This document shows, in pieces, positions 6,245-6,554 of a stretch of 64,000 nucleotides of DNA; positions within the stretch are counted from its first letter, which is position 1, and every line of letters begins with the position of its first letter. Source of the stretch: Eledone cirrhosa. Its lineage: Eukaryota. The stretch covers positions 2,046,001-2,110,000 of the forward strand of contig OZ024750.1 in the NCBI GenBank assembly GCA_964016885.1. Reading direction: 5' to 3'. The notes under the pieces were generated by a model, which did no database searches, was not told the DNA's origin, and saw only the letters and a list, made by a program, of their open reading frames with translations. Made by a program: the position numbers and the translations under genes.

Positions 6245-6554
6245 ATATTAAAATACAAATATTAATAAAATAGATGTTCTTGTGATCAATTAAATTTTAT
6301 TATACATATTTCAGAGGTACAACAGTACGTCCTCATCAGATAAAATAAAATGATACATGACATACCCTGAGATGTTAAATGGTTAAGATTTAATCAAGGT
6401 AGTGATTAAATCTTAACCATTTAACATCTCAGGGTATGTCATGTATCATTTTATTTTATCTGATGAGGACGTACTGTTGTACCTCTGACATATGTATAAT
6501 AAAATTTAATTGATCACAAGAACATCTATTTTATTAATATTTGTATTTTAATAT
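6245..6554. repeat. Long near-perfect palindrome (152-bp arms, 6-nt loop), probably an inverted Penelope-like pseudo-LTR
   Basis: 6245-6396 is the reverse complement of 6403-6554 with one mismatch (6310/6489); abuts a long (TA)n tract. Confidence 0.9.
6295..6345 (-). ncRNA. Minimal type I hammerhead ribozyme motif
   Basis: UUUUAU CUGAUGA G GACGUAC UGUU GUACCUC U GAAA U AUGU A UA AUAAAA: stem I UUUUAU/AUAAAA, stem II 7 of 8 pairs, 2-bp stem III, AUA cleavage triplet; the mirror copy at 6454-6504 (+) has GACA instead of GAAA. Confidence 0.75.

Follow-up and report, generated by a model that had tools for sequence, protein, structure and literature searches.

A hammerhead-bearing palindrome in Eledone cirrhosa is a two-armed insertion of a Hydra-clade Penelope-like element, with a probable origin in double priming

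Introduction

The closest described relatives of the locus reported here are the endonuclease-containing (EN+) Penelope-like elements (PLEs) of the Hydra clade. These elements carry an open reading frame (ORF) of about 700-800 aa with RWK-like, DKT, CxCX5C, CxxC and CxH motifs, are inserted in (TA)n, and have a hammerhead in the pseudo-LTR (pLTR), a tail at one end and, as listed for Penelope-13_HM, an inverted 5'-truncated copy (PMC8557442). The family described below shares these features. However, its tail measures 93-98 nt instead of 30-40 nt, and its hammerhead, compared by eye, differs from all Hydra motifs in File S2 of that paper, including the cephalopod Hydra-1_oBim. A start site, a cap-derived G or a count of end pairing was not found in the available parts of PMC8557442. 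The minimal hammerheads of metazoan PLEs are likewise of type I, with a long stem II and a tiny palindromic stem III suited to dimers, and pairs on opposite strands 100-700 bp apart have been reported (PMC4209133); hammerheads in inverted pLTRs are already published. The same paper proposes cleavage and circularization, whereas the insertion ends in the present family are not set by the cut site.

Mechanistically, the nearest system is the PAc Poseidon element, for which in vitro work describes cutting and extension of both target strands, two internal reverse transcription (RT) starts that define the tail, use of uncleaved RNA and a predicted dimer (PMC11167929). Its start sites lie in the ORF and show neither homology to the target nor a difference between strands, whereas the putative priming sites described here lie in the 5' UTR, have 4-8 nt in common with (TA)n and are used one per strand. 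Twin priming of L1 also involves a second RT event from the reciprocal DNA end, with microhomology or untemplated bases at the junction, but in L1 the two arms either adjoin or share 1-10 nt (PMC11702581), while in the present family the overlap reaches 152 nt and the two putative priming sites have fixed positions. Finally, non-LTR retrozymes share the type I hammerhead and a PLE origin (10.64898/2026.07.22.740005), but are tandem arrangements of at least two consecutive hammerhead units, whereas the locus studied here is inverted.

The palindrome and its hammerhead motif

The window is the whole stretch of DNA analysed, 64,000 nucleotides of Eledone cirrhosa (assembly GCA_964016885.1, contig OZ024750.1, positions 2,046,001 to 2,110,000 of the forward strand). 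It contains a palindrome with arms of 152 bp each at 6245-6396 and 6403-6554 around the loop AGGTAG. The sole arm mismatch, at 6310/6489, leaves the plus-strand copy with GACA in place of GAAA. Arms, loop and mismatch are all as given in a first-pass annotation of this DNA, but the edge of the element, which it had placed at 6245, is not: the left arm continues as the tail of the family to approximately 6147. The left arm is therefore long and the right arm short, and the insertion spans approximately 6147-6554 (Table 1). Only a short degenerate AT run is present on its left flank. Elements are numbered on the hammerhead strand with +1 at window position 6396.

Table 1. Features of the two-armed insertion in the window
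Feature	Positions	Strand	Remark
Whole two-armed insertion of a Hydra-clade PLE, long and short arm head to head	6147..6554		
Long arm, element positions -6 to ~+250, element sense strand	6147..6403	-	96.9% identical to the ORF-linked pLTR in L032
Tail between the two 3' ends, 93-98 nt	6147..6244	-	In tandem copies the tail continues to the ORF start at ~+310
Minimal type I hammerhead motif, intact core, predicted cut 6301/6300	6294..6345	-	
Palindrome turn, the element's own 7-bp hairpin with 6-nt loop	6390..6409		Holds the putative transcription start
Putative transcription start, position -6	6403	-	
Short arm, element positions +1 to +152	6403..6554	+	
Second hammerhead copy, private GAAA-to-GACA change at 6489	6454..6505	+	
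(TA)n target microsatellite, right side	6551..6721		

On the minus strand of the left arm, stem I (UUUUAU/AUAAAA), the core boxes CUGAUGA and GAAA and a UA at the cut site are accompanied by a stem II whose 3+4 bp are interrupted by a C.C mismatch and a 2-bp stem III with the loop AUGU. A motif scan of the window confirmed this core and these stems, as first annotated; of its two matches, only the left-arm motif has stems I and III, and the left copy has the complete minimal type I core with stems I-III, whereas the right copy carries GACA. Hammerhead covariance models, proposed in the annotation as a check, gave no Rfam hammerhead match in 4000-9000, where only hairpin-driven miRNA models below their gathering scores were returned. 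A further hammerhead remnant suggested near 6051-6065 (minus strand) was rejected: it is a 13-nt match without an upstream CUGANGA, the first core box, in single-copy DNA, as the sole genome match of 5960-6092 is itself (with a search method that skips common words).

Covariation among copies, anticipated for stems I and II, is found in stem II, which is paired in 109 of 112 cells across 16 variants (shuffle mean 89.2; none of 5000 shuffles reaching 109, a result that is not a probability since the variants were picked from loci and are related), and which stays paired through changes on both sides in related motifs of the same genome. Stem I barely varies among copies and therefore displays no covariation. 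Judged from sequence comparison, chance does not account for the motif. Stem III consists of 8 self-complementary nucleotides, AUAUGUAU, AUAUAUAU or AUGCGCAU, in 16 of the first 18 rows, but not in the other two nor in three unrelated motifs, and its self-complementarity is as would be expected for dimer-type motifs (cf. PMC4209133). In folding predictions, the hammerhead monomer reaches -0.6 kcal/mol versus -6.8 kcal/mol for the best fold, and the double hammerhead -12.8 kcal/mol versus -19.1 kcal/mol for the best dimer. A mismatch at the fourth position of stem II (window 6313-6332 and relatives), either C.C, C.U or C.A, is kept in 16 of 16 variants with covarying flanking pairs, which distinguishes these motifs from those in the available parts of PMC4209133; a tertiary contact or a protein site is a possible explanation.

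The host element

The arm is a multi-copy repeat of the 3.0-Gb genome, with 58 matches at 91-100% identity (from 40 scored of 1,392 candidates), and the same pLTR, 97-99% identical, is joined to coding sequence for a reverse transcriptase and a GIY-YIG endonuclease. Upstream of the arm, copies reach a 3' UTR and then the RT/GIY-YIG ORF (loci L031/L032, L033 and L137). Downstream, tandem copies at 10 loci run past +250 to an ATG at approximately +310, which places the hammerhead within the 5' UTR of the following unit. The first-pass annotation was right in reading a minimal type I hammerhead in the pLTR of a young PLE, with an inverted pLTR, a (TA)n target and a self-complementary stem III. 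Its suggestion of a non-autonomous or retrozyme-like unit is not supported, as the same pLTR is attached to the RT and GIY-YIG ORF.

Several features identify the family as an EN+ PLE. RT motifs together with a VYK...YIG motif are present in L031/L033/L243, and the copies display pseudo-LTRs formed by partial tandems, an inverted 5' copy and a tail at one end. In the atlas, clusters at 0.96-0.98 are annotated with GIY-YIG, RVT_1 or HTH_animal; among the listed homologues, PF00078 is annotated in 1 of 120 and the clusters are of PLE type. Searches of Pfam with five ORF pieces and of PDB with one piece gave no relevant match. The motifs of the Hydra clade are found as RWR in L244, as DKT in 10 of 10 aligned rows, and as CNCRNKIDC (CxCX5C), CALC (CxxC) and CLH (CxH) in L031, while a CCHH motif is absent from the protein alignment as judged by eye. 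Furthermore, insertion into (TA)n is seen, with AT repeats adjoining the +152 and +245 ends in nearly all rows. A complete intact ORF was not found in the 150 scored of 36,878 candidates, in which the longest frames, 750 and 636 aa, are incomplete. An antisense hammerhead first suggested by L033 proved to be an inverted 5' copy.

On these sequence features, the element is a Hydra-clade PLE with an RT and GIY-YIG ORF and not a retrozyme, and the family seems to represent a new member of the Hydra clade, its hammerhead having been compared by eye with published motifs. The tandem order of non-LTR retrozymes is not seen, as the locus is inverted and partial tandems elsewhere lead into the ORF; tandem monomer arrays running from cut site to cut site were not seen in the loci examined. 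Equal terminal inverted repeats, as in a MITE or DNA transposon, are also lacking, as in 81 of 85 copies one end has the tail and the other does not.

The core mismatch

The A14 position of the hammerhead is essential, and the annotation had drawn attention to the fact that the only mismatch between the arms falls in the catalytic core. A special meaning is not borne out by the family. Exact 28-mer counts over the genome give a single GACA version and 511 GAAA versions, so that the change is private to this copy. In 66 pairs of arms overlapping by at least 50 nt, mismatches affect 23 of 786 core positions and 165 of 6857 positions elsewhere (Fisher p = 0.39), and in the 55 pairs covering both cores, both are intact in 41, one in 10 and none in 4. 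A single random mismatch would have a chance of about 8% of landing in the core. The GACA is either a later neutral change or a base-call error. Contigs from three public runs (one sample) contain the family, including its short-end and read-through loose ends, but no listed piece spans the palindrome or decides base 6489.

It had also been proposed that self-cleavage would be open to one strand only. With the two arms head to head, transcription passes through the antisense arm before it reaches the sense copy, whichever strand is read, and both ribozyme copies are therefore predicted to be masked: in the predicted fold of the read-through RNA the core is fully paired in the 152-bp duplex on either strand. 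The ribozyme at this copy is thus predicted to be a passenger.

Ends and pairing of the arms

The exact 30-mer of the turn junction occurs at 34 places in the genome with different flanks, in at least three subfamilies and in both loop orientations; at 30 exact-turn loci, the loop lies on the long arm in 16 and on the other arm in at least 13. The 5' ends of arms pile up at -6, the A of TCACT, and an Inr-like TCACT is also present in a rotifer pLTR (PMC3846280). At -7, the 1,902 matches carry the native C 1,265 times, G 221 times and A or T 416 times. Inspection by eye showed a junction in 98 of the first 100 G rows and in 86-87 of the first 100 A/T rows, which corresponds to about 575 arms starting at -6, or about 30% of the 1,902. 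At a control site, +24, 144 matches are non-C (non-C rows being what was counted there, not total matches), and the first 100 of these hold 7 clear and up to 3 doubtful junctions, none of them with G. At 30 G loci judged by eye, the G could come from the partner arm in 11, matches neither partner nor flank in 17 and is undecided in 2. The G-bearing arm is the short arm in 11 of 18. In L1 and SVA, an untemplated 5' G is credited to copying of the cap (PMC9341517, PMC3287187), and by analogy -6 is likely a capped transcription start. Around two thirds of arms crossing -6 show read-through there, which implies that longer RNAs also serve as templates. The hammerhead is found uncut inside the arms, and a hot spot of 5' ends at the ribozyme cut site was not found in a search with an 18-mer covering only some subfamilies, in which about 26 junction rows of 53 are spread over +93 to +97.

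The 3' ends are also restricted. Arms end at +152 or at about +245-250, in both cases at TTTAATAT followed by AT repeats; both sites are AU-rich and lie upstream of the ATG, and the arms run into (TA)n. Among copies with two ends, 81 of 85 combine a short with a long arm, while two are short+short and two long+long (p = 1e-19 against 50%). These 85 distinct pairs derive from 154 locus entries, of which 63 hold no two-ended pair in the DNA examined and 8 pairs are duplicates. In a set collected with the core 28-mer only (the matches on chromosome C1 and two on C2), 31 of 32 pairs are short+long; the other locus sets were chosen by junction patterns. Two of the four exceptions look like scoring artefacts or separate insertions. 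Tails at one end are known in PLEs, but a count of them was not found in the literature. Related hammerhead families display the same asymmetry by eye in four copies. Their short+long head-to-head palindromes (L008:1980-2390, L011:990-1420, L185:1780-2150 and L024:1820-2200) often lie in the TA flanks of copies of the family described here.

Within copies, the short arm extends more than 15 nt further 5' in 29 of 81, the long arm extends further in 10 and the two are similar in 42. In the 29 copies with 5' sequence found only in the short arm and a tail found only in the long one, neither arm can have been copied from the other, and the same holds where the G-bearing arm is the short one. Collision of reverse transcriptases was considered as a cause for the more common truncation of the long arm (29 versus 10) and is superfluous, as synthesis of the long arm must cover 93 nt more. 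Arms diverge by 2.6% within loci and by 6.2% between loci, and rare variants common to both arms number 24 in 66 pairs against about 0.6 expected, although the partner arm is the nearest neighbor in only 24 of the 66. Gene conversion between arms could be a source of shared variants, and asymmetric loss of palindrome centers after insertion could produce some of the non-nesting.

Origin of the head-to-head arrangement

The head-to-head insertion probably arose through two RT events, started from the two cut strands of the (TA)n target, on what was likely a capped, uncleaved sense RNA. In such a scheme, the endonuclease would cut both strands of the target, each target 3' end would anneal to one of the AU sites of the sense RNA, both cDNAs would be extended to the capped 5' end or halt earlier, and their free ends would join to give head-to-head arms. 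The short+long rule would follow if one RNA cannot carry two primers at one site. A stricter version, in which one RNP obligatorily uses two fixed AU sites of a single capped sense RNA, one per target strand, copies one and the same stretch into both cDNAs as far as the cap, and thereby generates both the inverted pseudo-LTRs and the one-sided tail of PLEs, seems to us evenly poised between right and wrong. Against double priming stand the 4 of 85 pairs that are not short+long, the read-through of -6 in most crossing arms, the low count of partner arms as nearest neighbors, the PAc start sites with neither strand difference nor target homology, and the incomplete frames among the scored ORF matches. 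At the locus itself, a 7-nt overlap at the junction (6403-6409) hides the stop point, and the mechanism therefore rests on the family.

The closest competitor is a fold-back, in which one cDNA reaches the 5' hairpin, folds and copies itself into the second arm. The turn, at the locus and at the 34 genome places, is exactly the 7-bp hairpin of the element, the short arm at the locus is contained in the long arm, and shared variants would be explained; indeed, fold-back and double priming fit this single locus equally well. As a general mechanism it already fails, because 29 of 81 short arms hold 5' sequence missing from the tail-bearing long arm, the loop at the exact-turn loci lies on either arm, and the stop of the second arm at +152 is left unexplained, so that we consider it unlikely. 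Self-priming on an antisense template is the reading given for palindromic head-to-head junctions, which are common, in PMC3846280, where self-priming on sense RNA is argued to yield tail-to-tail repeats. For the present family this reading is quite improbable: the fixed boundary with its extra G lies at the sense-strand 5' end, each of the outer ends is an AU site of the sense strand that adjoins (TA)n, and the arms are frequently non-nested. It is the end pairing, the -6 boundary with its G and the non-nested arms that favor double priming over antisense self-priming.

A second insertion, independent of an earlier one and placed at its 5' end, or a central deletion of longer inverted repeats would be compatible with the preference of PLE endonuclease for AT-rich DNA, including the element's own pLTR (PMC11167929), and with the related families often present in the TA flanks; such events would yield neither the 81 of 85 short+long pairs nor the excess of rare shared variants, and no deletion would halt at a single base preceded by G, which makes them very improbable. 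The 34 exact-turn copies could also be taken for a non-autonomous palindrome, similar to a retrozyme or MITE, that propagates itself and has one of its ribozymes inactivated, given that short units bounded at -6 are abundant and would be re-transcribable if the putative promoter is internal. This reading is nonetheless very improbable too, since these copies span at least three subfamilies and both loop orientations, their unequal ends are not terminal inverted repeats, GACA is unique with 41 of 55 pairs keeping both cores, and the cut site is no hot spot of 5' ends. An assembly or sequencing fold-back artefact, for which the missing spanning piece in the three public runs might speak, is practically negligible, as 34 genomic sites with different flanks share the exact turn and arms differ by the family tail in length and by 2.6% on average in sequence.

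If the stricter version of double priming is correct, the genome records it in hundreds of copies, the question of sense versus antisense templates is settled for the Hydra clade, and the inserted RNAs were not cut by their own hammerhead. The family links what PMC11167929 observed in vitro to products formed in vivo, and points to one putative start site, two putative priming sites and a proposed rule of one site per strand. It offers countable genomic evidence on template sense and head-to-head origin, a question left open in PMC3846280. The openly licensed literature yielded no statement on a cap-G boundary, a pairing rule or double priming in PLEs. Situated roughly 100 nt into the 5' UTR, the hammerhead would separate the RNA from its cap by cutting, which suggests regulation, and not the formation of ends, as its role. 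Among PLE insertions the locus is an ordinary one; more can be learned from the family.

Other repeats in the window and genome

A SINE-like repeat has inserted repeatedly into arms of the family, mostly at +45 to +65 (L047, L051/L070, L073, L089, L098, L105 and L106). At one of about 245 loci (L025 ~1660-2700; G000:C26 near 9041800-9042830), an array of about 1 kb with a 17-nt unit and 53 exact 14-nt cores, built from priming-site sequence, lies between two arms; it could stem from reiterative, telomerase-like copying by the PLE RT or from later tandem expansion. Two near-identical loci, L100 and L101 (G000:C1 near 205.39 and 205.72 Mb), contain two two-armed insertions each and are probably a segmental duplication.

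Elsewhere in the window, 37068-40311 is 97.6% identical over 3.2 kb to part of L031 with an open frame of 1,024 aa, which looks like an APE endonuclease plus RT and which we take to be an RTE-like LINE. A 70-bp match to the tail region at 32603-32669 (76%) is probably a fragment of a related PLE family. The imperfect inverted repeat at 6867-6996, with arm sequence again at 6709-6787, appears to consist of fragments from a small repeat family, and 3120-5533 is occupied by a 48-bp tandem array of 50 copies with 96% matches.
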